DNA of 64,000 nucleotides. Source: a virus. Location: positions 1-64,000 of IMG/VR virus record IMGVR_UViG_3300044846_003365. The stretch is one strand, 5' to 3'. The position numbers and the translations under genes are program-made. The notes below the pieces were generated by a model. That model ran no database searches. It had not been told where the DNA came from and was given only the letters and a program-made list of their open reading frames with translations. Shown here in pieces: positions 28,201-63,443 of the stretch (its first letter is position 1; each line of letters opens with the position of its first letter).

Positions 28201-31200
28201 AAGAAGCTCGCCGACAGCTCTGACTGCATCTTCTTCATTATTGAACCTAGCTCCAAAGTTATCCGCCCCTTCTGGCAACTTTGAGGTGTTAATGCTGTGA
28301 GTCAGTCTATAAACTTGAGCACTAGTTAAGACATCGGTTTCTCTGTCTATTCTAGCTACGCTACTTATGTCTTGAGACCTAACAATGGAAAAAACATCTC
28401 CCCTAGTAGAGTTAGCTGTTCTTCGGATAAAGAATCTTTCACCGTTTATTCCGAGCTGGACTTCTGTAACTTGCGTAGCAGAGGTGTTTACTAGGTCTGG
28501 AGTCGAAAGTTGGATTACAGGGGCACCAGAGTTAACAATTTGACTTCTGTCTATTTCAGCAATTAGATTTCCAGTTCCAGCAGACCTACGCTGAGCTTCC
28601 TGCTCCAACATAATTAAGGCAATGTTTTTGTCGCTAACAGTTGCGATTGACCGAAGTCTGTCCAGTCCACGGGCGGTTGCTGGCCAAAATACTGGAGTAG
28701 CATCTTCTTCATTAGACACAGCCAATGTATAAGTGCCGTTATCATTTTCGATGACTCTACCAATTATTGTTCCAGATTCTGAGTCAGTAGGGCTAATTGT
28801 TCCTATAAGAGCAATTGTTCCGTTACTATCTTTATCTTCATAAGTAATTACAGCAAGGTCAGACCTATTGCCACTAGGGAAAGAGTAATCTCTTCTAGTT
28901 GCAGCGCCAAGACCTGATTCAGACTTAAGGGTTGCTGGCTCTGGAAGGTCTTCAAGTGTCCAAGCTTGTCCATAATTAGATGCTATAGAAGCGTTAAGAA
29001 GAGCATCTACATTTTCTCCCTGCATTTGGAGGGCATCTCTTAGGGCTGCGTGGCCAATCTGTATCTCTTTACCGTCTTGGTATCTAAGGGTTAGAGTCTC
29101 GCCAACCGCCGCTGGGAATACGGCTCTTGTATAAGCTTTTCTAAGAGTGCTAGTAGAAAAGTTTCTAGCAATAACTCTTGGGTCATCTGAAGCTTCTCCG
29201 TTTCTCCACTGTTCTTCTGTAACAGTAGGAACGTGCTTTTCATTCAAAACTGTTACTAGAGTTGGACTACCGTTACGTCTTATGCCTCTAGGCCTAAGTT
29301 CAGTAGTTGGAGCAATTCGGGCGGTAATGTCTCTAGGGTTGACATCCTCTTCTTGAATTCTACTAGCGCCACCAGCGGTAGCAACTCTAGAAACAGAACC
29401 AAAGTCTCCACCTATTTCTCTCGGAGCTGGAGGAATCTCTGCTTCAACTTCTCTATAAATCTTTTCAATATCTTTAGAGATACCGCTTAAGCCATCTGGA
29501 CTCTGCTGTAGGTCAAAAACATCTAGCTTTATCGGGGTGACATCTTCTAGTGGCCTTACTTCTCTTCTAGAAACTTTGTCAGCGTCAGTAAACTCTTCGG
29601 AATCAATCTTGTCAATTAGCCTAGTTAGGTTGTCGACCAAGTGAGCAGAAGCATCATCCATAACACCTTGTCTAAATCCAACAGTTTGTGGAAAAGGAGT
29701 GTTGCCAGCTTCTTGAATAGAGTCACGGATAGTTTTTAGCTTTGTTAGGGCTTGTTCCTTGCTAATTCCGCCCTCAAAGGACATTTCCTTAATTACTTCT
29801 AAAATATCAAAGTCAGGGTTAAGAGCTGTGGTCTTGCTTTTTAGGAAGTTTGCATAGACAGAAGGAACAGGTACTTGGTCTTTAGCGCTTGGATTTGTTT
29901 TGAATCCATTTCTAAAAAGCTCAGCGTGTTGTCTTAGCAGACCGTTTAGGTGCCAAACCGGTCCTTCTTGGCCAAAGCTGTCTGAAACACCAAGTGGCTT
30001 GTAAAAAGATTCAAAGCTTCTAACGGTGCTACTAAAGATATCTCTAATTAGTCTCTTAGATTGGTCAACAGGGCCGTCTTGAGTTTTGACCCAGCCTATT
30101 TCCTTCCACCATTCAACAACCTTGGAGTTTTTTACGTGAAGAAGCTTCTCTACCTGACTTGGGTGGTGCAGAGCTGGGTCGTGACCGTTTACAGCCTTAG
30201 AGCTTCTGTTTCCGTCAACTAGAAGGTGAAGGCTATGCTGGAATTTACGTCCTGCTCCCTCAATTGCATACTGAGAAGCAAGAGCCATAATTCCTCCAAG
30301 ACCGTCCCCCTTAGCCTTGCTGTCATTAACAGTTACATAAGCTGTTGTGACAGGCTTTTTGTTTTTACCGTATCTAGTCTCATAAAAAATCTTTGCGACG
30401 CTTCTATTGGTAGTCTCGTCAAAGTGCCACTTTCCATTTCTGTCACCAAAGTTTTGGAATCCTACAGACGGACCTCTTTTACCGTCTGGACCTATTCTGT
30501 ATACGTTAAGGATTCTGCCTTGGTAGGCCCACTCCATTTCATAAGCGGTTCCGCTCTTACCAACAAAAATAGCTCTGAAGTTTCTAATTACCTCTGTGTT
30601 TTTGTCTTGAGTGTCGCCTGGGCCTCTAACAATAGAACTTTCAATAATCTTTAGATTTCTAACCCTGTTATCAATGCCACCAAAAATGTCAGCCTTGTCG
30701 CCTCTGAGTTTGATGTCAGCTAGGAGGTCTGTAACGCGACCTGCGTAAATTCTAGCTAGTAGGTACTGTCTATTAAACTGCTCGACATTGTTGGCCTGTC
30801 TAGCATTTGACATACCGAGAATTGCAGAGTTCTTTCCGCCAATCAAAACTTTTAGAAGTCTAGCTTGGGACTCAGTTAAATTTTCGTAATCAATGTTTTC
30901 TGGGGTTCTAAGACCATCAAAAATGTTAGAATCTATGTTTTCAGGAATCTCTATGTCCTGAACAATCTCGGCTTTAGAGAGAGACGAAGGTTCTACGTCT
31001 AAAGCGTCTTGTTTATTCTTTGTAAAGTTTCTTACGCCAATAAGTCTTGACGCAAGGCTTCCTAAGTTTTCTTCTTCTTCAGAATCTTCTGGCGCACCGA
31101 GCTTGTCTCGTAGTGCTCCAATTTTTTCTACTAAAGAGCGGATTCCTCGCATGACAAGGTTTCCATCTTTTTGCTCTACAGCCGAGTCAATTTCGGAAGT

Positions 31201-34223: not shown

Positions 34224-34730
34224 TTAGTAGTCTGACATGTACTCTGAAGCCATCTCGTTTAAAGAGATTTCAGAAATAGAAGTCTTGTCAGCGCCAATGA
34301 TGGTGCCCAACTGCCAGTGGTACTTAGTGTGCACATCTACACGTCCAGCTAGGAAGTCTGCAACGCCCTGCTCATTAAGTTCGCTAGCCATAGCAAAAGC
34401 TTCTAGTAGGCAACGAACCAAATTAGCATTTAGGTTGTAAAGCTCACGGCTCTGGTCAATGGGGTCAGATGACGTAGGGTTTGGCTCCATAGAAGCCATA
34501 GAAACGTAGTCAGACAATGTAACTGGTGCATCGAAGCCAAGCTTGCGAATGTTCTCGCCTAGTGGGTCGATAGCTGATTCTGCATCTTCGTATAGCTCGC
34601 CAAAGAAGTCGTGGAACTGAATAAACTGTGGTCCCTTGACATTCCAATGGAAGCCCTGTGAAGCAAACTTGTAAGTTACAAGGTCGCTAAGAATTACAGA
34701 AAGCTTAGAAGCTAGCATTTCCTTGCTCAT
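34224..34730 (-). CDS. dps: Dps / ferritin-like DNA-protection protein
   Basis: FHWNVKGPQFIQFHDFFGELYE...IDPLGENIRKLG, with the ferroxidase H, H, D, E residues present. Confidence 0.9.
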   Translation of the reverse strand: MSKEMLASKLSVILSDLVTYKFASQGFHWNVKGPQFIQFHDFFGELYEDAESAIDPLGENIRKLGFDAPVTLSDYVSMASMEPNPTSSDPIDQSRELYNLNANLVRCLLEAFAMASELNEQGVADFLAGRVDVHTKYHWQLGTIIGADKTSISEISLNEMASEYMSDY

Positions 34731-50693: not shown

Positions 50694-50969
50694 TTAGTAT
50701 TCTGAGTCGCTCTCAATCCAAGCGTCTAGATGGTGATTCTCAACCAAAGCTCTTACTGGAGCTGTGTTGCTTCCTTTGTAGGAAGTGCCTTCTGGCAGTT
50801 CTACTTCGGAATCCCAGTCGCCAGCATTAGCTAGCTCAATAGCCTCGATACAAGGCTTGACCATAAACTTCGGAACTGGAGGATAGTGATTACCCTGTAA
50901 GTGCCACTCTATTTGTTGGCTTAGTGCCAACTCGCTTGAGGCGATATCAACTGCTGTTCTGAATCCCAT
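50694..50969 (-). CDS. Conserved small actinophage-type protein (HLQGNHYPPVP)
   Basis: HLxxNHYPPVP...HHLDAW, start ATG 50969. Confidence 0.7.
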   Translation of the reverse strand: MGFRTAVDIASSELALSQQIEWHLQGNHYPPVPKFMVKPCIEAIELANAGDWDSEVELPEGTSYKGSNTAPVRALVENHHLDAWIESDSEY

Positions 50970-51028
50970 TGGAGTCCTTTCTTTAGACTCCATAAGGATA
51001 ACAAACTATTTGGTAAAAGTCAAATCTA

Positions 51029-51437: not shown

Positions 51438-51731
51438 CTATCTTGCGACTTTTACAAAGTCGTAATCAGTTGTGTAGCGAGTTGCTTCGTAGACCTCTGG
51501 GAAGTCGGTAGCCAACTTCTTTGAGTCTACATAGGTGTTGGTTCGTGATACCAACTTGAAAGCCACTACGCCACCAAAGGTAGCCTCTGTGGACTGACCT
51601 AGAAGCTGACGCAACTTAGCCTCTGAGTCCTTCTTGAGAGCCTCTGCCTTGTCTGCCAAAGCCTTAGCCTCCACGAAGTCTGCTAGAGCCTTGCGAGCCT
51701 CTGAGTTGAAACCAAGTTCTAATGAACTCAT
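51438..51731 (-). CDS. Hypothetical coiled-coil protein with structured 5' leader
   Basis: Start ATG 51731, VDSKKLATDFPEVYE motif, terminator at about 51402-51430. Confidence 0.7.
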   Translation of the reverse strand: MSSLELGFNSEARKALADFVEAKALADKAEALKKDSEAKLRQLLGQSTEATFGGVVAFKLVSRTNTYVDSKKLATDFPEVYEATRYTTDYDFVKVAR

Positions 51732-51814
51732 ATGAAACACCACTTTCGAAAGTTTCAGACTTTTCAGTCTGGGTCGCTGGAGAAGTCCTTTTGACTTCTT
51801 TCCCAACTAATACA

Positions 51815-51836
51815 ACTATAAAGCATACCTACGACA
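51815..51836 (-). promoter_or_regulatory. PafBC/RecA-NDp-type promoter TGTCGT-N10-TATAGT with overlapping TTGACA -35
   Basis: Minus strand CTTGACAAATGTCGTAGGTATGCTTTATAGT. Confidence 0.7.
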
Positions 51837-51915
51837 TTTGTCAAGTTCATTTGAACTTTTTTTATAACAGTTTGATAACGGAAACCCCGCCCGAAAGCGG
51901 GGCTTCCAAATCAAG

Positions 51916-52122
51916 CTAGGACACTACTTGGTAGTCCACAGTAGGCACAACAGAGCTGGCATAAACGCCTAGCTCGTAGATACCAGCGTGTCGAACTGCC
52001 AAGGACTGAGCATCCTCACCCTGAAAAGTTTTGTTCTCGCTTGGAAAGTCGTGAACCAAAACTGTCCACACACCAGCTTCCTCGAAAACTGAAACTCGCT
52101 TGCTCGCATATGAATTGACCAT
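51916..52122 (-). CDS. Hypothetical protein with structured 5' leader
   Basis: Start ATG 52122 after GAAAGGTGGT. Confidence 0.6.
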   Translation of the reverse strand: MVNSYASKRVSVFEEAGVWTVLVHDFPSENKTFQGEDAQSLAVRHAGIYELGVYASSVVPTVDYQVVS

Positions 52123-52204
52123 ATACTCGACCACCTTTCGACCACTAGGGTCTTAGAGCTGGAGAGCTTCTTGTGAAACTCGTTCCCAACTTTGCTACTC
52201 CTAT

Positions 52205-52304
52205 ATTTTACCAGCAGCCTACGACATTTTTACTATAAAACAAAAAAATATTTATAACAGTTTGATAACGGAAAAGTTTGTGATTTTAGCACGACCCACT
52301 GACA
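52205..52304 (-). promoter_or_regulatory. Two tandem PafBC-type promoters (52205-52226, 52283-52304) flanking an OmpR-like box
   Basis: TGTCGT-AGGCTGCTGG-TAAAAT and TGTCAG-TGGGTCGTGC-TAAAAT, with no TTGACA -35. Confidence 0.7.
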
Positions 52305-52406
52305 TTTCTGAAACTTTTACATAAGCCAAAGGGTCTAAGTTTTTCCACGCAGGAGGTTTCCAAAAAAAAATGCCAACCCTTTCGGGCTGGCACTCTTTTC
52401 TATTTC

Positions 52407-53057
52407 TTAGAGAACTTTGTAAAGGTTATACTCGTCAGTTTTATCCCAGTCTACATTTCCTTCTTCGTCTAGGACAGCACCAGCGTTCTTGTAATCTTCG
52501 GAAGTAATCTCTCTGTAAGTGTCGGAAAGTATTTCCCCACCTTCAATCTCAGCCCTACCAAAGAAAGCCATACCTTCTTCGGCATACTGATAAATTATTC
52601 TTACATCATAGACTTCAGAAAGTCGTCTAAAGAACTCTAAAGCTGGACTCCACGCAGTAGAAGAACCAATCCCAAGACTGAACTTTCCATTACCCAAATC
52701 TGTAATCTCGGTAATTGAAACTCCACCAAGTTGGTCTAAGTCCCACTTAGTTCCCCAGTTTCCGATATTCCAGTCATACCAGTTGTCAAAAGTTCCAGAA
52801 GAGCCTTTAGCCCACTCCAAAGTCTTTTGCTCGATAGACTTAGTTTTATCTTCTTCTACACCAATAAAGTTTGGTGTTGGGAAAAAGTTATCAAAAGAAA
52901 AGATGTTCGGCTTCTCTTCAAACTTTTCGTAGTTCATAATTTCTTTGTTCCAGTCGCTTCCAATTTTGAAAGTTCCTTCAGCACCCTTTGCCAATATTGT
53001 TTCTAGGGTTTCTTTGTCCCCAATAATATCAACATCTAAATCACACCAGTTTGGCAT
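52407..53057 (-). CDS. YubB/DUF1281 ferredoxin-like domain protein
   Basis: MPNWC...WYDWNIGNWGTKWD...TAWSP...YAEEGMAFFG. Confidence 0.8.
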   Translation of the reverse strand: MPNWCDLDVDIIGDKETLETILAKGAEGTFKIGSDWNKEIMNYEKFEEKPNIFSFDNFFPTPNFIGVEEDKTKSIEQKTLEWAKGSSGTFDNWYDWNIGNWGTKWDLDQLGGVSITEITDLGNGKFSLGIGSSTAWSPALEFFRRLSEVYDVRIIYQYAEEGMAFFGRAEIEGGEILSDTYREITSEDYKNAGAVLDEEGNVDWDKTDEYNLYKVL

Positions 53058-53198
53058 ATTAGTTTCCTTCTTTCTCTGTAATTGCTATTTCGAGTTTGGT
53101 TATGTTTGCTATCGCTTGGTCAAACTCTTCCCAAGTTTCAAATGTCAAAGTAATCATTTTTTCCTTCCTCGTATTTCTATTATAGAGCTTTTTTCAAA

Positions 53199-53456
53199 TT
53201 AGTCAAGTTCATAATCATAATCTTCGTAATTCGCTTCTTCGTAATCTCTTTTGTCTTCGGCAGTCGAGCTACGGAAATGAACCACGCCACAAAACTCGCA
53301 CTCCACTTCGTAGTTGCCCCAGTCGTCAGTTGCGGAAAGATTTGCTTCATTAGTTTTTCCGCACTCTTCGTTTCCGCAAACAAACTCGTCATACGGAACT
53401 TCTACTGAATAAATACCAGACCCCATCATTGAACCTGCTGGATAATTGCTTGACAT
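53199..53456 (-). CDS. Small Zn-ribbon protein
   Basis: CGNEEC...CEFC, start ATG 53456. Confidence 0.65.
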   Translation of the reverse strand: MSSNYPAGSMMGSGIYSVEVPYDEFVCGNEECGKTNEANLSATDDWGNYEVECEFCGVVHFRSSTAEDKRDYEEANYEDYDYELD

Positions 53457-53479
53457 TTTTTCCTTTCTTATTTCTTGGT

Positions 53480-53692
53480 CTACAAGTAGCAATCGCTACA
53501 CTTAGGGCTTCGCTCTAAGCTCTGAATCCACTCGTGAGTTTCTTGGTTTACTGTGTATTCGCCACCACACTTGTAGCAAGTAAAGTCATATCTAACTTCA
53601 CCCTTTGGGGCTACTCTGCGATTACCACGCAAAGCCAAGTCGTTTAGTTCCTGCTCGCTTAGTTCAGGATTCTCTTTTGCTAATCTACTCAT
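53480..53692 (-). CDS. Small Zn-ribbon protein
   Basis: CYKC...CSDC, start ATG 53692 (ACGAAAGGA RBS). Confidence 0.65.
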   Translation of the reverse strand: MSRLAKENPELSEQELNDLALRGNRRVAPKGEVRYDFTCYKCGGEYTVNQETHEWIQSLERSPKCSDCYL

Positions 53693-53714
53693 TTGTTTCC
53701 TTTCGTTAGTATTC

Positions 53715-53797
53715 AGTATAAAGCTACCTACTGACATTTGTCAAGTTGTTAGGTAATTCTTTTCTTCGTGTTTAGAAACTACACCCACCCACCGACA
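53715..53797 (-). promoter_or_regulatory. Two tandem PafBC-type promoters (53715-53736, 53776-53797)
   Basis: TGTCAG-TAGGTAGCTT-TATACT and TGTCGG-TGGGTGGGTG-TAGTTT. Confidence 0.7.
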
Positions 53798-53847
53798 TTT
53801 TTGGAATTGTCAAAGGGTAGCTCTTTTTTCACGCAGACCCCCCGAAG

Positions 53848-54010
53848 AAAAAGTTGAGCAGTTTTACAACTTGCTCAGGTTGTTATTCCTGTATACCTCA
53901 CCAATAGAGGTGTTTAGGAAACTTAGGTAAGCCTTTTTACAACTTGCTCAGGTTGTTTTGTTCGCTTCAGCTTTAGAGTCTTGCGACGCAGTATTTGGGC
54001 GAACAAAGCT
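53848..54010 (-). ncRNA. Candidate structured RNA with two repeated H-type pseudoknot units
   Basis: AACAACCTGAGCAAGTTGTAAAA occurs twice. Each is an ACAAC/GTTGT stem whose loop can pair downstream (TGCTCA, GCTTA). Two further hairpins flank them. Confidence 0.55.
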
Positions 54011-54013
54011 TTA

Positions 54014-54190
54014 TTACTTTTCAGCTTCAATAGCTAAAGCAGTTTCCCACTTTTTGCTATCGTAAGCTTCGTCAAACCTTTTGTAATCTTCGCTTGACCA
54101 ATCTTTCGTGTCAATCAGAAGAATCTTCCCGTGTCCATAGCTTTCGTCGTCAGCTATCCAAAGCGTGTTAGGTGAAAGTTCTTTTATCAA
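54014..54190 (-). CDS. Hypothetical protein (58 aa)
   Basis: TTG start overlapping the upstream TGA, MIKELSPNTLWIADDESYG... Confidence 0.55.
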   Translation of the reverse strand: MIKELSPNTLWIADDESYGHGKILLIDTKDWSSEDYKRFDEAYDSKKWETALAIEAEK

Positions 54191-54597
54191 ATCTTCACCT
54201 CTTCCTTACGCTTTCTACTAGCCCATCCGTCTCCAGCGAACTCCATCTCGTAGTCCCAGACCTTACCAAGAGCAACAGCGACATCCGTTGAGATGTCAGT
54301 CCAGCTCTCGCTCTCACGCCATAAGTTGCTAAGGTCAGGGTAAGTTGGTAAGTCCTCATCCGTTGAGTAGTCCCCAAGCACCAAGACTCTATCGCCTGTC
54401 CAGCGACCAGACAAGCCGTCAAACTTGTTCCAGTCTCCACCACCCCTTGCCGGTGAGGTCATAAGTAAAAGATATAACGCGTCAGACATTGAACCCTCGC
54501 AACCCGTTTGCTCGTATTGCTTAGCACCCAAGCCGAGCGGATAAGAACTAACCTGCTCTTGCTTATCAAGATTTACTAATTTGTGATACTGTCCCAT
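54187..54597 (-). CDS. Conserved phage hypothetical protein (MGQY...NLDK...GRWxGDR...GDY family)
   Basis: Recognisable motif set, own promoter and RBS. Confidence 0.75.
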   Translation of the reverse strand: MGQYHKLVNLDKQEQVSSYPLGLGAKQYEQTGCEGSMSDALYLLLMTSPARGGGDWNKFDGLSGRWTGDRVLVLGDYSTDEDLPTYPDLSNLWRESESWTDISTDVAVALGKVWDYEMEFAGDGWASRKRKEEVKI

Positions 54598-54696
54598 CTG
54601 TTTCCTTTCGTCGTTGTTTTATTGTATACCTTATCCGTCTCTTTGTCAAGTTTATTGGCAGGGGGGAGAGAGACAGGTTCTCCCCCCGCCAAGCCT

Positions 54697-56544
54697 TTAG
54701 CGGTTCTGCTTTGACAGGGCATCCGCAGCTTTCTGACCAATCAGTTCAGCTACCTTGCCCAAGCCGTCGTCAGTTGTGGCAGAAACAACTTCTGCACCGT
54801 GTTGCGCTAGCCCCTTTACCGTGTAGTCGTCAGGGGAGAAGGTAATCCACAACACTCCAACGCCACTATCCTTACAAGCCTTTAGCCACTCCGTAGCCTT
54901 CTTGGCTTGCTCGTAGCGGTAGTGTGCATCAGACACAACAACCAACAAGCGAGCGCCGTCAGAGTGCAACAAGTTCAGCGAGCCATCCAAAGCTTGAAAG
55001 CCTTTGTCAAACTCTTCTGTCGAGTCTGGCGCTGTGTAAACATTGACGGCATTTAGGTGTTGCCCCGGCTTTAGAGTCGCAAAGACATCTTGACCAAAGT
55101 AGACCATAGCTGTCGTTGCTTGAACCCTGCGACCTGCTTCTGACAAAACCCAAGCTGTGGTAGCTAAGGGATTCATAGCAGCACCCATAGAACCAGAGAT
55201 ATCAACCATCACGCCAACCTTTAGTTCAGGGTCGTCAGTATGCTTTCTAACAGTTCTTTCCCAAGCTTCGACTCTGTGGTTCAAGCCCATTGACTTGTAT
55301 GCAGCGTTCTGAACCATAGCACGAGAGCGCAACCTGCCCTGCGGAACAAAGCTTCTAATCTCTGTCTGCGAGCGCTCACGATACTTAGCTTTCTCAAGTA
55401 GCTTCGCAACCTTGACAGCTGCAGCTCTCTCTTCTCCAGTTGGAGTTCTAGTCTCCCTTAGAGTCGAGTTAGTCCCATTGTTTTCTCCGGGACCAGAGCT
55501 GTTAGAGAAAACTTCTGACGCAACATCCTTATGCTTTTTCTGTTGCTTAGAAACTTCGGCACGAGCCTTAGCTTCTTCAATAGCTTCTTCAACATCCATA
55601 GCATCAAAAGCTTCTGACAGGTTAGAGATTTTTACAATCTCTCTAGCTTCTTCAACTGCTTCTTTCAAAGCTTCGGCAAACTGCTTTGCAGCAGAGCTAC
55701 CAGTTCCATTACCAGAACCATTAGAAGAAGAACTTGATTCAGAACCTTCGCCATCCTCTTGCTCTGAACCTTCTTCGCCCTGCTGTTTCTCTCCAGCATC
55801 CTTACTAGCCTTGTCCACAATCTCAACCCAGCGTTTCGCTAGTGGATAAAGTTGTGTGGCATCAGCGTGGCTATCGTGAGCTTGGAACTCAAGCCACACT
55901 TCACGCAACTGGCTAAGAGTGTCCTCTCCCATTACGGAAACAATCAACTCACGAATAGGCTCAACTTCACTCTCGTCTAGAACTCCAGCATCAACACGAG
56001 CGAGAGTTAGACCAGCAGTAAACGCAGCGCCACGAACAGACGACAAGTTTTCTGCAACTGAATCCATATCACCAATCGCAAGTTCCATAGCAGAAGAGCG
56101 AAGAAAAAGTTTATTCTCTGGCATAGACTTTATTCCAAAGGATTCAATTCTTCCTTCTTCCAAAGTCTGCAAAGCTTTATACTCAACGCCACTAAGTTCG
56201 TCAAAAGCTTTCTCCAAAGAGAAACGAGAATAGCGAGCGTGCAAAGCTTCGTGGTAAATTGCACCACAAGCAACTGGATGCTCTAGCTGTCCCAATCTAG
56301 TATTCAAGTTAGAAACTAATTCCGGGCCAATGTTAGGAAAAGCTTTGGCTGTGTTGATTTCGATTTCGGCGCTCGCAGGGTTGAACAAAGCCGGGTGGTC
56401 GTGCGAAATGCTGTCGCCCATAGTTACAACTAGGTCGCTACGAAAAGACCAATCGTTTACAAGACGACCAACGACTGCACCAATGCGCAACCAACTAGGG
56501 TCGTTCTCTTTACGAGTCTCCAAGTCCAAACTAAAGTGATTCAT
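54697..56544 (-). CDS. vWA-domain protein with N-terminal HExxH domain (CobT-like partner of MoxR AAA+)
   Basis: YHEALH...LEEGRIE, MIDAS DISGSM, VVSD. Start ATG 56544 (AGGAG RBS). Confidence 0.85.
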   Translation of the reverse strand: MNHFSLDLETRKENDPSWLRIGAVVGRLVNDWSFRSDLVVTMGDSISHDHPALFNPASAEIEINTAKAFPNIGPELVSNLNTRLGQLEHPVACGAIYHEALHARYSRFSLEKAFDELSGVEYKALQTLEEGRIESFGIKSMPENKLFLRSSAMELAIGDMDSVAENLSSVRGAAFTAGLTLARVDAGVLDESEVEPIRELIVSVMGEDTLSQLREVWLEFQAHDSHADATQLYPLAKRWVEIVDKASKDAGEKQQGEEGSEQEDGEGSESSSSSNGSGNGTGSSAAKQFAEALKEAVEEAREIVKISNLSEAFDAMDVEEAIEEAKARAEVSKQQKKHKDVASEVFSNSSGPGENNGTNSTLRETRTPTGEERAAAVKVAKLLEKAKYRERSQTEIRSFVPQGRLRSRAMVQNAAYKSMGLNHRVEAWERTVRKHTDDPELKVGVMVDISGSMGAAMNPLATTAWVLSEAGRRVQATTAMVYFGQDVFATLKPGQHLNAVNVYTAPDSTEEFDKGFQALDGSLNLLHSDGARLLVVVSDAHYRYEQAKKATEWLKACKDSGVGVLWITFSPDDYTVKGLAQHGAEVVSATTDDGLGKVAELIGQKAADALSKQNR

Positions 56545-56682
56545 TTTTTTCTCCTGTCTCTGATTCACTAAGTAAATTGTAAAGCTTTTAGCTTCATTTG
56601 TCAAGTTCTAGGGGGTGTGTGGTGAGTGCCTAAACAACTATGAAAAAGACACCCACCCCACTTCTGCCTAATCTGGAAGGAT

Positions 56683-57714
56683 TTAGATTTTGGCAGGTCT
56701 AGCTTCTTCACCATAAACTCTGGTAAAGACATCTGACACAACAGTTCTGTCCATCTCTGGCGCAGAAGCAATTAGATTCTCAATCGCCCACTTCGTTCCA
56801 AAAGACTCGGAAAGAGTTTTGAAAGTTAGTAGCTCTCGCATCTGCGGCGCCCAAGAGATTTCGTTAGAAGCTTGCTTCTTAGCGAGATTCTGGGCAACAG
56901 TAACTGCTGGAGTCGGAACGCCAAGCTTACGAGCAAGAACCCAATCAGTAGTCATTTCTGCTTGGATACCAAATCGAGAAAGCAAAGCTTCTGACAAGCG
57001 AACACCCGGAGCGTTAGGGTTAGTTGCAGCAACTACATAAAAGCCTTCTTTAGCTTTTACAGTTCCACGCTCTGGATTGGCAGTAACGGCAATCTCTCGA
57101 CGACCATCCATCAGACCATACACAACTGACAAGACCTTAGGGTCAATAAGACCAATCTCGTCAATCAGTAAAGCCTTACCCTGCTCTGCAGCTTTGACCA
57201 GCGGCCCATCAATCCACTCGAATCCACCACTTGGAGTCTGAACATAGCCACCAACAAAGTCGGCAACTTCTGTATCGCCAGTTCCAAGGACAGTAAACAA
57301 GTCTGAACCAAATGCAGCTTCGACCATAGCAGTCTTACCAGTTCCCGGTGCGCCATACAGTAGAACATACTGGTTAGCTACACGAGCTTTCTTTAGGACT
57401 TCAACATCACTATGCTCTCCCCAACTGCGAGCAAAATACTTCTCGCCATTAGGTCGCTCATAAGAAGATTCGCCTTCTAGAGTTTCTGCTTCCACAATCT
57501 TTGCCTTCTTTGGAGTGGAGTTAGCATCCCTGTTTCTAAGAACAGCTTTGCCAAACTTTTCGTCGTAGTAAGACACTAGCTTAGCATCACCAACTAGAGA
57601 GTAGTTTTGAGTAACAGTATCTCTAATTAGCTTCGCCAAGTCCAAACCTGGATTAGCAGCGTCAAGTCCATCAAGAACTTCTGTGTTTCTATTTACAATC
57701 GCAATTTCAGTCAT
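56683..57714 (-). CDS. MoxR-family AAA+ ATPase (CobS/CbbQ-like)
   Basis: GAPGTGKT, LLIDE, AATNP, ALLSRF. Start ATG 57714. Confidence 0.9.
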   Translation of the reverse strand: MTEIAIVNRNTEVLDGLDAANPGLDLAKLIRDTVTQNYSLVGDAKLVSYYDEKFGKAVLRNRDANSTPKKAKIVEAETLEGESSYERPNGEKYFARSWGEHSDVEVLKKARVANQYVLLYGAPGTGKTAMVEAAFGSDLFTVLGTGDTEVADFVGGYVQTPSGGFEWIDGPLVKAAEQGKALLIDEIGLIDPKVLSVVYGLMDGRREIAVTANPERGTVKAKEGFYVVAATNPNAPGVRLSEALLSRFGIQAEMTTDWVLARKLGVPTPAVTVAQNLAKKQASNEISWAPQMRELLTFKTLSESFGTKWAIENLIASAPEMDRTVVSDVFTRVYGEEARPAKI

Positions 57715-57733
57715 TTTATCTTTCCTTCCTTGA

Positions 57734-58237
57734 CTAAGCGCTTTCAGTTTCGAATAGGGACTCTCCCCATCCAAGACCAGTTCTTGCTCTAAGAACTCGT
57801 CGAACTAGAGAGTTTGGAGTCTTGCCACTTGACAGCTCTGATATCTCTAGGTGAGAAACTTCTACCACTATTGGCTTCTTGAACAAAGTCCAACCCAATC
57901 TTGTGAAATCTCGTATTGTGTGGATGGAGTTGTAGGACAAGTTCGCAACGAAGAACTCTTTTACAGAAGTCTCTGACTTCTGAATAAGCACTCCATCAGA
58001 ATCTCTTTCAATAGTTGATTCTGGATTTGCTACATGCTCTCCCAAAGCCTTGAAGATACTCCAAGTCTTTCTAGGGTGAGAAGTAGAAATCACTCTTCGC
58101 ATTACACGAGAAGCGACCAGCTTGTTATCTATCCCAATTACTGCTGGGGTAAAGATAACTTGCGAAGTATAAGAACCCTTGCGGAACTCTAGATACAGAG
58201 CTTTACCAGCAGAGTCCTTTGGACTTTTTTCACTCAT
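57734..58237 (-). CDS. Hypothetical protein, first gene of the AAA operon
   Basis: 167 aa, AAGGA RBS, TTGACA promoter upstream. Confidence 0.75.
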   Translation of the reverse strand: MSEKSPKDSAGKALYLEFRKGSYTSQVIFTPAVIGIDNKLVASRVMRRVISTSHPRKTWSIFKALGEHVANPESTIERDSDGVLIQKSETSVKEFFVANLSYNSIHTIRDFTRLGWTLFKKPIVVEVSHLEISELSSGKTPNSLVRRVLRARTGLGWGESLFETESA

Positions 58238-58313
58238 AGTTGTTTTCCTTCTTTCTGTAGATTTAGATTATTGCAGACTTTTTCTGCTTTGTCAAGTCTT
58301 TCGACTAGACTTT

Positions 58314-58607
58314 TTACTCGTCGTCGTCTTCGACTTCAACTTCGACTTTTTGTTCCTCAATCGAAAAGCCATTGTATTTTTCGATAATTCGGAAAAGTTC
58401 TTCCCAAGCATATTTGTTTAGCTCGTCTTCGTCATAAATGTAGACATCATCATCTATCCAAGTCTTGTCTGAGAGTTGGACATTTCCTACTGGTTCATAA
58501 CTTATGGTGGTCTCCCAATTAGTCTCGTCATAAAAACCAGACACTTCTAATCTGAAACCATCAAGCTCGATGCTTGCTACTGCTTTGGTCTTTGTAGTTG
58601 TTTTCAC
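58314..58607 (-). CDS. Hypothetical acidic protein
   Basis: Start GTG 58607 after GACGAAAGGA. Confidence 0.65.
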   Translation of the reverse strand: MKTTTKTKAVASIELDGFRLEVSGFYDETNWETTISYEPVGNVQLSDKTWIDDDVYIYDEDELNKYAWEELFRIIEKYNGFSIEEQKVEVEVEDDDE

Positions 58608-58629
58608 GTTTTCCTTTCGTCGTTGTAAT

Positions 58630-58716
58630 ACTATAACATAAGCTACTGACATTTGTCAAATCGCTTTTGTTGTGCCTGCTGACACAACTTTTACATTGTG
58701 CCAGCAGCCACTGACA
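58630..58716 (-). promoter_or_regulatory. Two PafBC-type promoters (58630-58651, 58695-58716)
   Basis: TGTCAG-TAGCTTATGT-TATAGT and TGTCAG-TGGCTGCTGG-CACAAT. Confidence 0.65.
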
Positions 58717-58719
58717 TTC

Positions 58720-59238
58720 CTAGAAGTGGAAGTCCACTGGGACTAGGAACCAATCAAGCTCACCTTCGGCAATCTTTTTGCGAAAGTGTTCTGTGTTAGT
58801 GCTGTCGTGTTCTAGGTCGAAGAAGTAGGAATTGAAGTCCCAAGTGCCTTGCAACATATCAATCATCTTCTTCAAGGGATACAGCTCAAAGTCATACTGC
58901 ATTTCCCCGGTATAGCTGTCGAGCTTTGCTTCTAGGTCAACACCTTTTTCTGCCAAGCTCTTGCGATAACCATTGAACTCATCAACACGATTTGAAATTG
59001 CTTTTGCAATCAGCTCGTTGAACTTAGCTGGGTCATCATTCCAACTAACGATGTGGTTTGGAGAACTTGCGTAAGGGTCGCCTTCAACAAATCTTCCACC
59101 ACCAACTACGAACCAGTCGTACCAAGTGCCACTTGAGCTTTCAAAGTCTCCCAACCAACGCTGAAAAGTATCTTCGACGTTCCTCAGTGCTTCATCGCTG
59201 TTGTCAGCTTTTACTGCTACATACTGCAATACATGCAT
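58720..59238 (-). CDS. Conserved phage hypothetical protein (WxDWxVxGGGR...VDFHF family)
   Basis: MH...WYDWFVVGGGR...VPVDFHF. Confidence 0.75.
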   Translation of the reverse strand: MHVLQYVAVKADNSDEALRNVEDTFQRWLGDFESSSGTWYDWFVVGGGRFVEGDPYASSPNHIVSWNDDPAKFNELIAKAISNRVDEFNGYRKSLAEKGVDLEAKLDSYTGEMQYDFELYPLKKMIDMLQGTWDFNSYFFDLEHDSTNTEHFRKKIAEGELDWFLVPVDFHF

Positions 59239-59342
59239 ATTTGTTTTTCCTTCCTGTTGCTTTTATTGTATCAATTTATTTTTCAAAAGTCAAATCTATT
59301 TTGGTGAGAGTTGGGGGATTGCTCCCCCACTCCCGGCGCTCG

Positions 59343-59789
59343 CTAATCTATGCGAGCGTCCACCCAACATTCGAAACCCTTCGAACGCAAGTGTTGCGCC
59401 ATTCGATTTGCGATGAAGCGCTTACGCTCGAAGCTCTGGCCAGCGTCAGCAAAACCATATCGCTCGAAAGTGTAAAGGCCAACGCCCTTAGCTCTGCCAA
59501 ACGACCACCACTTCGAACCTAGCTTTTCTCCCATTGGGCGCTCTTGCACTAGCCACTGGGCGAACCCACTGCGACCACTCTCAAGAACTACAGTGGCAAA
59601 ACCACAAACGCCACCTTCGACAAACCAAGTTTTCTGGTTTGGGTCAACATCATTGCCAAGTGGTGTGCTTGGCGAACCAACGATGATTGGAGTTGGAGCT
59701 GGGCACTCAGCGAGTGCTTTGTGCGAAACAGCCTTCAGCTCGTTGAACAGAGCTTCGTACTGCGCACTTTTACTGCTAATTGTTTTCAT
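59343..59789 (-). CDS. Conserved phage hypothetical protein (GxCGFA...QSxERK family)
   Basis: Start ATG 59789 (GAGGAAGGA RBS). Confidence 0.7.
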   Translation of the reverse strand: MKTISSKSAQYEALFNELKAVSHKALAECPAPTPIIVGSPSTPLGNDVDPNQKTWFVEGGVCGFATVVLESGRSGFAQWLVQERPMGEKLGSKWWSFGRAKGVGLYTFERYGFADAGQSFERKRFIANRMAQHLRSKGFECWVDARID

Positions 59790-59849
59790 GGGTTCCTTCC
59801 TCATAGAATTATAGTTTACACTATTGTCTGACAAAAGTCAAATCGTGTC

Positions 59850-60158
59850 TTACTCGTTTTCATCGTCGTAGTCAGCAAACTGCTCAACAACTTGGATGTA
59901 TCCATCATTTGGGTTTTCTGGAGTTGTGTGGACAGCGTTGATAAATCTCAAGCCACAAGATTCCTCATACCACTCGACAACTTTGTTTGCCATTTCCTCA
60001 GGGTCCATTTCGGCGGAACTGATTAGTGGGTCGTAACCCCAAGAATTCATCAAGGTCATTTGTTCGTCATCCATAAGAATGTAAATCTTGTGGCAAGTGT
60101 CGAACGCAATTCCTTTGGCTTCTTTGGTGTATTCCAAAATTTCAAAAGCATCAACCAT
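59850..60158 (-). CDS. Hypothetical protein (FDTCHKIY...SCGLRFI)
   Basis: Start ATG 60158 (GAAAGGA RBS). Confidence 0.7.
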   Translation of the reverse strand: MVDAFEILEYTKEAKGIAFDTCHKIYILMDDEQMTLMNSWGYDPLISSAEMDPEEMANKVVEWYEESCGLRFINAVHTTPENPNDGYIQVVEQFADYDDENE

Positions 60159-60183
60159 TTTTTGTTTCCTTTCTGTTGCTTTT

Positions 60184-60205
60184 ATTATACAACCCCCCAC
60201 TGACA
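60184..60205 (-). promoter_or_regulatory. PafBC-type promoter TGTCAG-TGGGGGGTTG-TATAAT
   Basis: Exact RecA-NDp spacing with a perfect -10. Confidence 0.75.
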
Positions 60206-60302
60206 AAAGTAATCCCTTTTTGGGTTATGTTATCAATTTGTTATAAATGCGAAAGGGTGCCAGTTTTTTCACGCAGGCTCAGCGTGGAGAATGTTTGACC
60301 CT

Positions 60303-60551
60303 TTAGGAGTCTGGGTTTAGAACTGGCGAAGCACAGCTAACGCAAACGACCCACTCAGAGTCGTCATCAAGAACAATTACATAAGCTTTGAAGGAAGTGT
60401 CTGAAGACGCGGTCCCTAGGGGTTCTCTACATTGAGCACAAGACTCGTCGTCGTAAGTGTCAAGTCCGGCAAGGTTGGCTAGTCTCTCATCGCTGGTGTT
60501 AGATATGACGTGCATTTCAATGTGGCGCATGGTTTTATCATAGAGCACCAT
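60303..60551 (-). CDS. Small Zn-finger protein
   Basis: CAQC...CVSC, start uncertain. Confidence 0.6.
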   Translation of the reverse strand: MVLYDKTMRHIEMHVISNTSDERLANLAGLDTYDDESCAQCREPLGTASSDTSFKAYVIVLDDDSEWVVCVSCASPVLNPDS

Positions 60552-60576
60552 CCGTTAGGTTATTTTGAGGAAGACC

Positions 60577-60969
60577 TCAGTACCAACCAATCCACTTGAT
60601 GTGGTCCCAAGCTCCACACGCTTTATCGGAGTACCGATGCACCATGTACTTCCACGTATCGCGTACCTGCAAGTATGGCTTGCCGTTATGGCGGGCCTTC
60701 GAGCTCGCTAACTGTCCCAAGCCGTAGTAGATACCGTTCTGAGCTTTGTGGTTCCAGCGGGACTCGTAATGAATAACTTTGGCAAAGCAGTCCCACTGGC
60801 GAGCCGCTCCCTTGCCCGTTACTGGATGTCCGCCGTTAGCTAGGACGTACGTCTTCGCATAAGCTTTTATCTGGTCGACGGAGGGGGACTTGGGCTCAGC
60901 GCTCGCCGTTGGTACGAAGAGCGTCAACGTCAGTACTGCTACAGTCACTGCAATGGCTAGCCGTCTCAC
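60577..60969 (-). CDS. Secreted lytic-transglycosylase-like protein
   Basis: Signal peptide, CFAKVIHYESRWN..A.N..YYGLGQ...YMVHRY...CGAW..GWY. Confidence 0.8.
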   Translation of the reverse strand: MRRLAIAVTVAVLTLTLFVPTASAEPKSPSVDQIKAYAKTYVLANGGHPVTGKGAARQWDCFAKVIHYESRWNHKAQNGIYYGLGQLASSKARHNGKPYLQVRDTWKYMVHRYSDKACGAWDHIKWIGWY

Positions 60970-61248
60970 TTAAGCGAGCTCGCTAACCCGCTTGCCGTTA
61001 ACTCCAAGAACATCTAGATTGATGCCCAGTGATTTAAAAATTTCAATTGCGGTCTCACGTGGCGTGCCGTTCTCGTTGAACTGAGCAAAGAGACCGTCGA
61101 CCTCGTCTTTACAAATTGGGTGCCAAGGTCCTAGGTCGTCATACCACCTCAGGTCATCCGACGGTCCAGCATTAGGAGAGCTTTCATTACCACATGCGCT
61201 ACAGATTCGCTCGCCATCTCTCAGGCTCTTGATTACTTTTGATTGCAT
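60970..61248 (-). CDS. Hypothetical protein (CxxC...HxxC)
   Basis: ACGAAAGGA RBS and TTGACA promoter. Confidence 0.65.
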   Translation of the reverse strand: MQSKVIKSLRDGERICSACGNESSPNAGPSDDLRWYDDLGPWHPICKDEVDGLFAQFNENGTPRETAIEIFKSLGINLDVLGVNGKRVSELA

Positions 61249-61344
61249 AATTGTCCTTTCGTTTTAATTCACTTTAAACCTTCAGCAGGTTTTTGTCAAG
61301 TCTATTTTCGTTGAGGCGGAAGGGCCCGTGGGCAACTTTAACAT

Positions 61345-61443
61345 AAGAAAATCCCCCTCGGCCAGACGAATAGCTGAGGGGGAAATTCCCATGAACAACA
61401 TAACTAACTAACTAAAGAAGCCACTGAGCAGGCACCCAGTAAC
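61345..61443 (-). ncRNA. Candidate small RNA between a PafBC-type promoter and a terminator
   Basis: Promoter at 61450-61471, hairpin, TAGTTATGT repeats, terminator at about 61348-61384, no credible ORF. Confidence 0.45.
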
Positions 61444-61479
61444 AAGATAATTTTATCAGGACCCACTGACATTCGCAAG

Positions 61480-62244: not shown

Positions 62245-62404
62245 TCTCTCCCGCTAGTTTTTCCAAAGCTAGTACTAAGTTTACTGCTTCGTTGGCACGG
62301 GCCGTCACACGGACGTGCTCGATTCGCGTGGAGCTCAGCTTGATGTCAGAATGTAGACGCTCTGAGTGCTCTTTCGCTACTTCTATGATATCACTCAGAT
62401 TCAA
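62216..62404 (-). CDS. Small hypothetical protein
   Basis: 3' part of ORF 62216..62548 that is mostly not overlapped by 62391..63302. TTG start at 62404 is tentative. Confidence 0.5.
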   Translation of the reverse strand: MNLSDIIEVAKEHSERLHSDIKLSSTRIEHVRVTARANEAVNLVLALEKLAGENDNEDRAQK

Positions 62405-63302
62405 CTTTGTCAACTTTCTTTTCAGGTGTGTCTTCGACAACCTCTGCATCAACAGTATCCTCTTCAGCAACGGGGGCAGATTCCAACACACTAGTGGCGA
62501 GCCGTTGCAAACGTTCTTGAATAACCGATGCTGCAGGTCTAATGTCAATCGTTACGTCAGAGTTAATGTCAAACCCTGCTCTAACTCCAGCACGGTCAAG
62601 TATCTCGGTAGCTGCTTTGAGCTTTACAGGTTCGCTCTCAGCTGAATCCATCAACTGCTCCAGTATGTCAACTGCTGCAGGTGTGGCTTGTGTCAATCTA
62701 TCCCGTGCCCGTTCAACGCTATCCGTTGTCTTATTACGTAAAGAACCTAAATGGACCCTACACAAGCCGTCATCTTGTGGACGTCCTCCAGTCCAGAGCT
62801 GACATCGGATGCCGTCATCCTTGATGGCTTTACATCTGTGAGGGAGGGGGGAGGCCTTACGTCCCAGCTTTAGGCCCTCGTTCTGTTCCTTAGCCCAAAC
62901 CTTAGTCGAGCCCAATACCCACGGAGGAACAATGTTGTCCGCTTCTGCTTCGGCTAGTAAATCGAAGCCCGTTAAGTAATCTGAGTTCTTATTACGGGCG
63001 TCCGCAAGAATGGGGGCTTTCTCTTCTAGAGAGAGCAGACGTTGTTTACTCTGCATCTCTTGGGAGAGGGCTTGGATGAGTCCAGTTGGGACGCCGTTAA
63101 CTGCGTAAACAGGAATCCAATTCAGTCGCGCTCGCCGAAGGGCGGAACGGTTTTCAAAGGTGTCGACGCAAATACCTTTATCGGTTTCTTCGATACCGTA
63201 AACGCTTAGGTCTGGACGTAGGTTGGTAGGGGTGTCAACTTGAATCTCAGGGTCAACATCCTTAGCTCCGAAAGCGGAGGAAAGGTCTAGACTGTCTGAC
63301 AT
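62391..63302 (-). CDS. Terminase small subunit candidate (CCCH Zn finger plus helical domain)
   Basis: CKAIKDDGIRC...LCRVHLG and VKLKAATEILDRAG, motifs common in TerS-like proteins. Confidence 0.5.
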   Translation of the reverse strand: MSDSLDLSSAFGAKDVDPEIQVDTPTNLRPDLSVYGIEETDKGICVDTFENRSALRRARLNWIPVYAVNGVPTGLIQALSQEMQSKQRLLSLEEKAPILADARNKNSDYLTGFDLLAEAEADNIVPPWVLGSTKVWAKEQNEGLKLGRKASPLPHRCKAIKDDGIRCQLWTGGRPQDDGLCRVHLGSLRNKTTDSVERARDRLTQATPAAVDILEQLMDSAESEPVKLKAATEILDRAGVRAGFDINSDVTIDIRPAASVIQERLQRLATSVLESAPVAEEDTVDAEVVEDTPEKKVDKVESE

Positions 63303-63337
63303 CTATTTTGTCTTTCTATAGTAGTTATAAAGTTAGG

Positions 63338-63443
63338 GAGACGGGCCGACATCGGGGAGAGACCAGCCGACCCGTCTCGTTTACGCGAAGTGTGGGTGTG
63401 GTACAAAACGTCCTGACTCTCCCTGACGCCGACGCCACTTCGC
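63338..63443 (-). ncRNA. Candidate kissing-loop structured RNA between holin and TerS candidate
   Basis: Two hairpins whose loops (GGGAGAGUCAG and CUGGUCUCUCCC) are complementary. Confidence 0.4.

Follow-up and report, generated by a model that had tools for sequence, protein, structure and literature searches.

PafBC-dependent promoters (RecA-independent DNA-damage or RecA-NDp promoters, recA P1-type) are known from Mycobacterium, Streptomyces and other Actinobacteria, and their mode of recognition is called "sigma adaptation" (PMC8635444, PMC11804915, PMC6789036). The in vivo PafBC consensus is tGTCgg(N10)tA(N3)T without a -35 element; the helix-turn-helix (HTH) of PafB reads positions -23 to -28, designated as the "-26 element", and its residues R46 and R50 are reported to read the two G:C pairs of GTC (PMC8635444). 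PafBC is activated when its WYL domains bind single-stranded DNA (ssDNA) (PMC11804915). The PafBC authors themselves likened sigma adaptation to the sigma appropriation by MotA/AsiA of phage T4 (PMC8635444). PafBC and sigma adaptation have so far been known only as a host DNA-damage response, and nothing in the literature that we searched linked PafBC or RecA-NDp promoters to phage genomes. PMC12848934 cites a study by Rafique et al. from 2025 that concerns pafBC and mycobacteriophage resistance. Here we describe nine sites in positions 1 to 64,000 (the window) of the IMG/VR virus record IMGVR_UViG_3300044846_003365, which, as judged by sequence comparison, are probably genuine promoters that belong to the PafBC-dependent (RecA-NDp) type and have the host PafBC as their reader. 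The window covers the initial 64 kb of one linear viral contig of 79,718 bp (CheckV completeness, ~47%). Its GC content is ~44%, and the minus strand carries nearly all genes.

The nine sites were all located where the preliminary description of the window had placed them, with the N10 spacing in 9/9.

P61471, 61450-61471, minus strand: TGTCAGTGGGTCCTGATAAAAT; no -35 element; extended -10 TGaTAAAAT; directly after the endolysin stop codon.
P60205, 60184-60205, minus strand: TGTCAGTGGGGGGTTGTATAAT; no -35 element; drives gene 59850-60161.
P58716, 58695-58716, minus strand: TGTCAGTGGCTGCTGGCACAAT; no -35 element; weak -10 CACAAT after TGg; upstream partner of a tandem pair.
P58651 (hybrid), 58630-58659, minus strand: TTGACAaaTGTCAGTAGCTTATGTTATAGT; full -35 at 18 nt, box, and TGt before the -10; drives gene 58314-58607.
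P53797, 53776-53797, minus strand: TGTCGGTGGGTGGGTGTAGTTT; no -35 element; upstream partner of a tandem pair.
P53736 (hybrid), 53715-53744, minus strand: TTGACAaaTGTCAGTAGGTAGCTTTATACT; drives genes 53480-53692 and 53199-53456.
P52304, 52283-52304, minus strand: TGTCAGTGGGTCGTGCTAAAAT; no -35 element; extended -10; upstream partner of a tandem pair, directly after a terminator.
P52226 (variant box), 52205-52226, minus strand: TGTCGTAGGCTGCTGGTAAAAT; no -35 element; extended -10; drives gene 51916-52122 via an 85-nt leader.
P51836 (hybrid variant), 51815-51844, minus strand: TTGACAaaTGTCGTAGGTATGCTTTATAGT; drives gene 51438-51779.

A comparison with shuffled DNA had been proposed as a check, and in our pattern-based version both patterns were well above the shuffles. 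The loose pattern, TGTCRK-N10-YAnnnT, gave 19 matches in the window versus 3.6 ± 1.9 in shuffles, and the tight pattern, TGTCRGTRG-N7-YAnnnT, gave 7 matches versus 0.08 ± 0.31 expected. All 7 tight matches are among the nine sites, on the minus strand only and between 52.3 and 61.5 kb. TGTC, seen in 9/9 sites, was a requirement of the pattern used. Seven of the nine have TGTCRGTRG, in agreement with the statement that most sites read TGTCRGT(G/A)G, and the remaining two are TGTCGTAGG. Matches by chance would account for the loose-pattern background, which is only ~3.6 per window. Considering the excess of tight matches, the location of nine intergenic sites on one strand within 10 kb, and the conservation of one of them in a related contig (L061, described below), the probability of this explanation is negligible.

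The nine sites are all intergenic, lie on the coding (minus) strand, and are distributed over six regions (P61471; P60205; P58716 and P58651; P53797 and P53736; P52304 and P52226; P51836). The three tandem pairs contain 6/9 sites, and their members are 61-78 nt apart. Eight of the nine sites drive a gene with a Shine-Dalgarno sequence, either directly or via the downstream partner of a tandem pair. Downstream of the ninth site (61471) lies a short, structured candidate RNA.

Candidate small RNA (sRNA) of ~100 nt from P61471, 61335-61443, minus strand: 5' hairpin, AU-rich linker, GC-rich hairpin and U run; no open reading frame (ORF).

The predicted fold of the candidate sRNA, which ends in a strong terminator, has an energy of -43.6 kcal/mol (z = -5.3). 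The sRNA is not present in L061, and Rfam gave nothing at or near the gathering score in 37-64 kb, this candidate included.

The -10 hexamer is TAnnnT in 8/9 sites and CACAAT in one (58716). The TTGACA hexamers reported for three sites were confirmed at 51839-51844, 53739-53744, and 58654-58659, where they lie 2 bases 5' of TGTC and are spaced 18 nt from the -10; the lack of a consensus -35 in the other six was also borne out. An extended -10 (TGn before the hexamer) is present in 5/9 sites (61471, 58716, 58651, 52304, and 52226), 4 of which are among the six -35-less sites, and TG abuts the -10 hexamer in the -35-less sites 60205 and 53797. Two subtypes can be distinguished. The box-only subtype (n = 5) reads TGTC(A/G)GTGG(G/C) without a -35 and mostly has TG ahead of the -10, and the variant subtype (n = 4) reads TGTCAGTAG or TGTCGTAGG, with 3/4 members fused to TTGACA as TTGACAaaTGTC. 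Two more pattern matches were observed, TGTCGGCCCGTCTCCCTAACTT at 63330-63351 and TGTCAGTAGTGAGTGCTAGGTT at G000 75836-75857, both on the minus strand. TGTCGGCCCGTCTCCCTAACTT precedes gene 62391-63302 and is kept in L061 (L061:669), but within a hairpin arm, and TGTCAGTAGTGAGTGCTAGGTT is located inside or before an ORF.

The sites match the PafBC consensus in both sequence and spacing, as had been claimed (PMC8635444). Like RecA-NDp promoters, they have TGTCRG(TG) at -26, an exact 10-nt gap to TAnnnT and, in 6/9, no -35. Unlike them, they are found in a virulent-type phage genome, densely and partly in tandem, and have a near-consensus, often extended -10. There are no LexA boxes in the phage, three of the sites are fused to a full -35, and the downstream genes encode small acidic proteins and one candidate sRNA, not repair proteins. 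The nearest functional analogy among phages would be MotA/AsiA of T4. In T4 middle promoters, with the MotA box at -30, a box between -35 and -10 likewise replaces the -35, with a protein wedged between sigma region 4 and the DNA. Both T4 factors are phage-encoded and remodel sigma region 4, whereas no phage activator was found here and the box is the host's own.

The phage is a freshwater actinophage, not a mycobacteriophage, on account of its portal and gene-order kinship to the Actinomycetia phage DSL-LC01 (cultured, 129 kb, Dishui Lake), its lake-water source, and its Gram-positive lysis genes. Its portal shows 70% identity to that of DSL-LC01 and 58-63% identity to the portals of large Microbacterium phages, and the order of endolysin, AAA ATPase, CobT-like protein, small genes, terminase, and portal is common to the phage and DSL-LC01. 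The sequence is present in lake-water metagenomes of many studies. The lysis genes are Gram-positive in type (M23 peptidase, CHAP, amidase_2, and PG_binding_1). A megablast search of 51-62 kb against cultured phages gave no match. M. smegmatis, which the preliminary description had named as the host model, is thus the wrong choice for a 44% GC lake-water phage tied to DSL-LC01 by portal and gene order.

Host-side tests were conducted on the acI single-cell genome AAA278-O22 (G001) and on genomes of the same order, Nanopelagicales. The acI genome has two adjacent WYL genes followed by tatC, and their Pfam compositions are WYL+WCX (pafB) and HTH_PafC+WYL (pafC). This order agrees with that of mycobacteria, pafA-pafB-pafC-tatA-tatC. 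The acI PafB gave a full-length alignment (E = 1e-39) with the M. smegmatis PafB of 7P5X, the structure of RNA polymerase (RNAP) with PafBC, and its ERMFERDK stretch, which includes R46 and R50, is retained. The recA gene is present in 41/41 Nanopelagicales genomes. Among 30 recA loci examined, 25 are preceded by TGTCAGTGGC-N6-TACCTT, i.e. TGTCAG(TGGC)-N-CTGCTACCTT, followed directly by TCGAACAGATGTTCG, which we take to be the actinobacterial LexA box. The acI recA promoter has the PafBC box and the LexA box within 40 nt (recA loci L151-L177).

The box is scarce elsewhere in these hosts. TGTCRGTG-N8-TAnnnT occurs 2-5 times per 1.1-1.4-Mb host genome versus 0-2 times for the reversed control, and besides recA it stands in front of carD in two genomes, of one LysM and one DUF6504 gene, and of several leaderless genes (L182, L190, L191, L193); the LysM and DUF6504 genes each carry a LexA box too. 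The low copy number and the location at such genes indicate that, in this plausible host lineage, the box is not the general promoter form but a rare mark of the DNA-damage regulon. In bacterial genomes, the exact 18-base box gave 16 matches (4 in Actinomycetota) versus ~17 by chance according to our own estimate. The likeness of the phage copies to the recA promoter of these genomes extends to GTGG and to the TG ahead of the -10, and the word TGTCAGTGG is identical at Nanopelagicales recA and the phage sites. Many of the box promoters in these genomes seem to lack a leader, their ATG being 6-7 nt past the -10.

The box recurs in other phages. The exact word TGTCAGTGGG-N6-TAnAAT was found in at least 120 IMG/VR contigs among the matches listed, with GC contents of mostly 36-42%. 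Loose sites were counted in the box loci (1.16 Mb) with the ascertaining matches set aside, and 813 further sites were present versus ~40 by chance (our own estimate). Within a locus, they nearly always share a single strand. The logo of the 813 sites is aaaTGTCAGtSS-N4-TGnTAtAAT without a -35, and the frequencies at the TG positions are 66% (T) and 79% (G). The spacing in the 120 loci is N10 at 531 sites, and any other spacing from N6 to N14 occurs at 29 sites or fewer. Three complete genomes (110-117 kb) have 9-16 strict sites each, on one strand and in one ~10-kb block. WhiB, an actinobacterial hallmark, is encoded in 8/8 box-bearing records that are at least 90% complete, and among 14 control genomes only in C. 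glutamicum; on this gene content, the box-bearing IMG/VR phages are actinophages.

The ~110-kb lake actinophages and this phage have the same box, spacing, strand bias, and ~10-kb clustering, and the 99-aa and 216-aa acidic proteins are common to them. This phage differs from the ~110-kb family in its structural lineage (DSL-LC01-like), its fewer boxes, the interleaved canonical promoters, and the hybrids, and its portal had no match in five complete box-bearing genomes. The two lineages have in common only lysis genes, two holin-like membrane proteins, SNase, thioredoxin, and three acidic small proteins. No DNA-binding candidate common to this phage and the 110-kb family was found, the shared proteins being acidic or membrane proteins. 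The occurrence of the same box in two structurally unrelated lineages without a shared DNA-binding protein points to a host reader.

A WYL activator encoded by the phage outside the window had been considered as the alternative reader. This idea gained no support, since no WYL gene was found in the 79.7-kb contig or in 50 other box-bearing viral records, 8 of which are at least 90% complete. HTH_PafC, Sigma70_r2, and WhiB genes are also missing from the 79.7-kb contig. We consider it rather improbable that a non-WYL phage activator reads the box and recruits the host RNAP with no need of host PafBC, either as a MotA/AsiA-like pair or as WhiB acting on sigma region 4. The presence of WhiB in all eight near-complete box-bearing phages and the incompleteness of this contig agree with such an activator, and AsiA-type co-activators are small, as is the product of the following gene.

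Gene for an acidic 91-99-aa protein, 50694-50993, minus strand: no known fold; travels with the box-promoter blocks of other phages.

Of the 120 box loci, 60 have this 99-aa gene, as does each of the three complete genomes, where it sits within the box block (the gene for the 216-aa protein, 52407-53057, DUF1281_C, is in 39 box loci). The 99-aa gene has no tblastn match in the whole collection of cultured phages and is missing from DSL-LC01, of which the first 50 kb were covered, and from two further relatives, L001 and L002. Its link to the box, however, is confounded by common descent inside the 110-kb family. Further evidence opposed to a phage activator is that the shared block proteins, the 99-aa family likewise, have pI values of 4.1-4.6 and only 1-7 basic residues, and that WhiB, sigma, and HTH_PafC genes are all missing from the 79.7 kb. 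Moreover, the box and the host recA promoter agree even in GTGG and TG, so that a phage protein that reads it would need to copy the specificity of PafB. The invariant residues of the 99-aa family include NHYPP, C48, H88, and W92. The AlphaFold model, built with a 43-sequence alignment, has a pLDDT of 89.7; no Pfam family, no PDB sequence match, and no Foldseek match at E <= 0.001 were found, and the best VIA Z was 2.9. As a DNA reader, the 99-aa protein was rejected on its charge. It is very unlikely to read DNA, and its role could lie in anti-defence or in binding other proteins as a co-factor.

Within its own lineage, the phage was compared with L061, a 7.6-kb contig colinear with 64.0-58.7 kb (60-90% protein identity), with L001 and L002, related via a 614/635-aa CobT-like protein (45% identity), and with the first 50 kb of DSL-LC01. 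L061 keeps TGTCAGTGGGTCATGGTATAAT (5876-5897) before the ortholog of the P60205 gene, though the flanking intergenic DNA differs. L061 also has a further hybrid before a gene that this phage is without, and a third L061 site corresponds to a near miss in the window.

Near miss, 59813-59841, minus strand: TTGACTttTGTCAGacaatagtgTAAACT; canonical -35/-10 with TGTCAG at N9, not N10.

At this position, where the phage has TTGACTttTGTCAG-N9-TAAACT, L061 has a true hybrid (6271-6299) that reads TTGACTtTGTCAGTGG..TATAAT with N10. Other words are found in the more distant relatives. The small-gene block of DSL-LC01 (55% GC; 23.6-40.6 kb, L197) contains gATTCTAAAGnTGTTATAATnGAATC in ~20 copies, in which an inverted repeat encloses the extended -10, and the promoter word of L001 and L002 is ccTGATATAATagtacta (extended -10 ccTGATATAAT). 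Lineage-specific upstream words thus sit on a common extended -10 core, which argues that the words turn over fast. Such turnover fits host adaptation, but it also shows that genes of this kind can be driven from box-free promoters.

These relatives bear on the possibility that the sites are plain extended -10 sigma-A promoters (three of them canonical -35/-10 promoters), in which TGTCAGTGG is a spacer element or a repressor operator and PafBC has no role. The TGn before the -10 in 5/9 sites, the three TTGACA hexamers, and the syntenic relatives, in which similar genes have extended -10 promoters preceded by different words, are all compatible with it. The word of DSL-LC01 is part of an operator-like inverted repeat, GATTC..GAATC. 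TTGACAAATGTCA also holds inverted 5-nt arms, but no more than two or three sites show them, and they arise as a by-product from the complementarity of TGTCA and TGACA. The TGACA-NN-TGTCA repressor palindrome was tried and rejected on the same grounds. A mere spacer, furthermore, would neither fix TGTCAG so strictly at N10 in hundreds of sites from phages that are unrelated nor coincide with host DNA-damage promoters. We therefore consider plain promoters to be an unlikely explanation.

The nine sites had been proposed to mark a separate gene class, but this is not what the layout shows. Interleaved with the nine at 43.5-62.4 kb, and sharing their strand, are ~20 canonical promoters of the form cTTGACAaa-N17-TAnAAT, and the three hybrids should also work without PafBC. 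Because the canonical promoters share the same 19-kb stretch, the box promoters are a minority class among ordinary ones.

From these comparisons we infer PafBC as the reader, its activation by infection, and the timing. In the proposed mechanism, the -26 element TGTCRGTGG, which precedes a sigma-A-type -10 hexamer by exactly 10 nt, would be read by the host housekeeping RNAP only, or far better, with PafBC placed between sigma region 4 and the DNA by sigma adaptation. The host heterodimer PafBC would always be present and be switched on by ssDNA. The ssDNA formed in infection by replication, recombination, or nuclease action would then turn the box promoters on. Canonical promoters would need no helper and would probably be transcribed immediately, and the box promoters would form a delayed or boosted layer added over the ~20 canonical ones. 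The hybrids (TTGACA and box) could fire in both modes. A strong extended -10 may give the box-only promoters some basal activity, which would explain the start-up in phages whose blocks hold only box promoters.

Several points weigh against host PafBC as the reader. The phage -10 is near-consensus and mostly extended (TGnTAnAAT), and extended -10 promoters may work without a -35 or an activator, as the promoter words of DSL-LC01 (gATTCTAAAGnTGTTATAAT) and L001/L002 suggest. Three sites have a full -35. Two sites read TGTCGT, which is rare among box sites (T, 6% at that position). No box was found in the syntenic L001 and L002 or in the first 50 kb of DSL-LC01, and the box is thus not conserved across the lineage. 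The 99-aa gene tracks the box, as it is present in box loci and missing from the box-free relatives. The contig is only ~47% complete, and the segment that it lacks could encode a reader of the phage's own. There was no RNA run among the listed runs containing the phage sequence. Finally, acI (Nanopelagicales) as the host is a plausible guess based on GC content, habitat, and lysis genes common to other lake actinophages.

The wider proposal, which we regard as about evenly balanced, is that at least two unrelated lineages of lake actinophages independently wired gene sets, here together with an sRNA, to the host ssDNA sensor PafBC by copying its -26 box. The host alarm would double as an "infection under way" switch, with no phage activator. 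In this phage, the box would be seen being gained or lost atop canonical promoters, as in the hybrids, the N9 near miss, and its N10 ortholog in L061. If true, this would be a new viral timing of transcription, by a host ssDNA sensor and not by the phage's own sigma factor or activator, and pafBC mutants would be predicted to change phage susceptibility. The promoter set would also be easily tested, since the box is conserved across Actinobacteria and an in vitro system (RNAP-SigA, PafBC, and ssDNA) exists. The window adds a distinct phage lineage with mixed and hybrid promoters, and this phage is of particular value since a single gene block combines canonical, box-only, and hybrid promoters as neighbours.

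Other elements were observed around the promoters. P52226 and P51836 belong to a duplicated promoter module (51765-51895 and 52110-52285, minus strand) composed, in this order, of TTTCCGTTATCAAACTGTTATAAA, AAATGTCGTAGG, and a leader that contains AGTTGGGAA..TCTCCAGC; the proteins downstream of the two copies (68 and 113 aa) are unrelated. The motif GCGTGRAAA(A)-N6-7-ACCCT(T/C) has 7 intergenic copies (minus strand, 60274, 53834, 52350, and 38909; plus strand, 40884, 46946, and 51346). Three copies are 17-55 nt upstream of box-only promoters and several adjoin terminators. The motif was not found in the 120 other box loci or in DSL-LC01, and it could be bound by a phage protein. GTTATCRAWYNGTTATAAA, in which GTTAT is directly repeated, has 5 copies in promoter regions (plus strand, 38441 and 60229; minus strand, 52269, 51879, and 41528). 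Similar words occur in L009 and L043, and it is probably a site to which a regulator binds.

The structural region contains two giant ORFs on the minus strand, one of 2772 aa (25252-33570) without a Pfam family and one of 1560 aa (19825-24507) with only a weak prohead-protease match under the curated cut-off. Auxiliary genes in the window, all on the minus strand, encode a ferritin/Dps-like protein (34224-34730) and a CobS-like AAA ATPase (56683-57774) adjoining a CobT/VWA-like protein (54697-56541). Those on G000, also on the minus strand, encode a Mom-family DNA-modification protein (64047-64685), a thioredoxin (75190-75510), and a cobalamin adenosyltransferase (77722-78318). Read depth has peaks at promoter regions. 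In same-lake contigs of other phages, the P58651 -10 is a junction with homologues of different genes (53164, 54596, and 60148 to 58632), and shared promoter words seem to mark mosaic boundaries.

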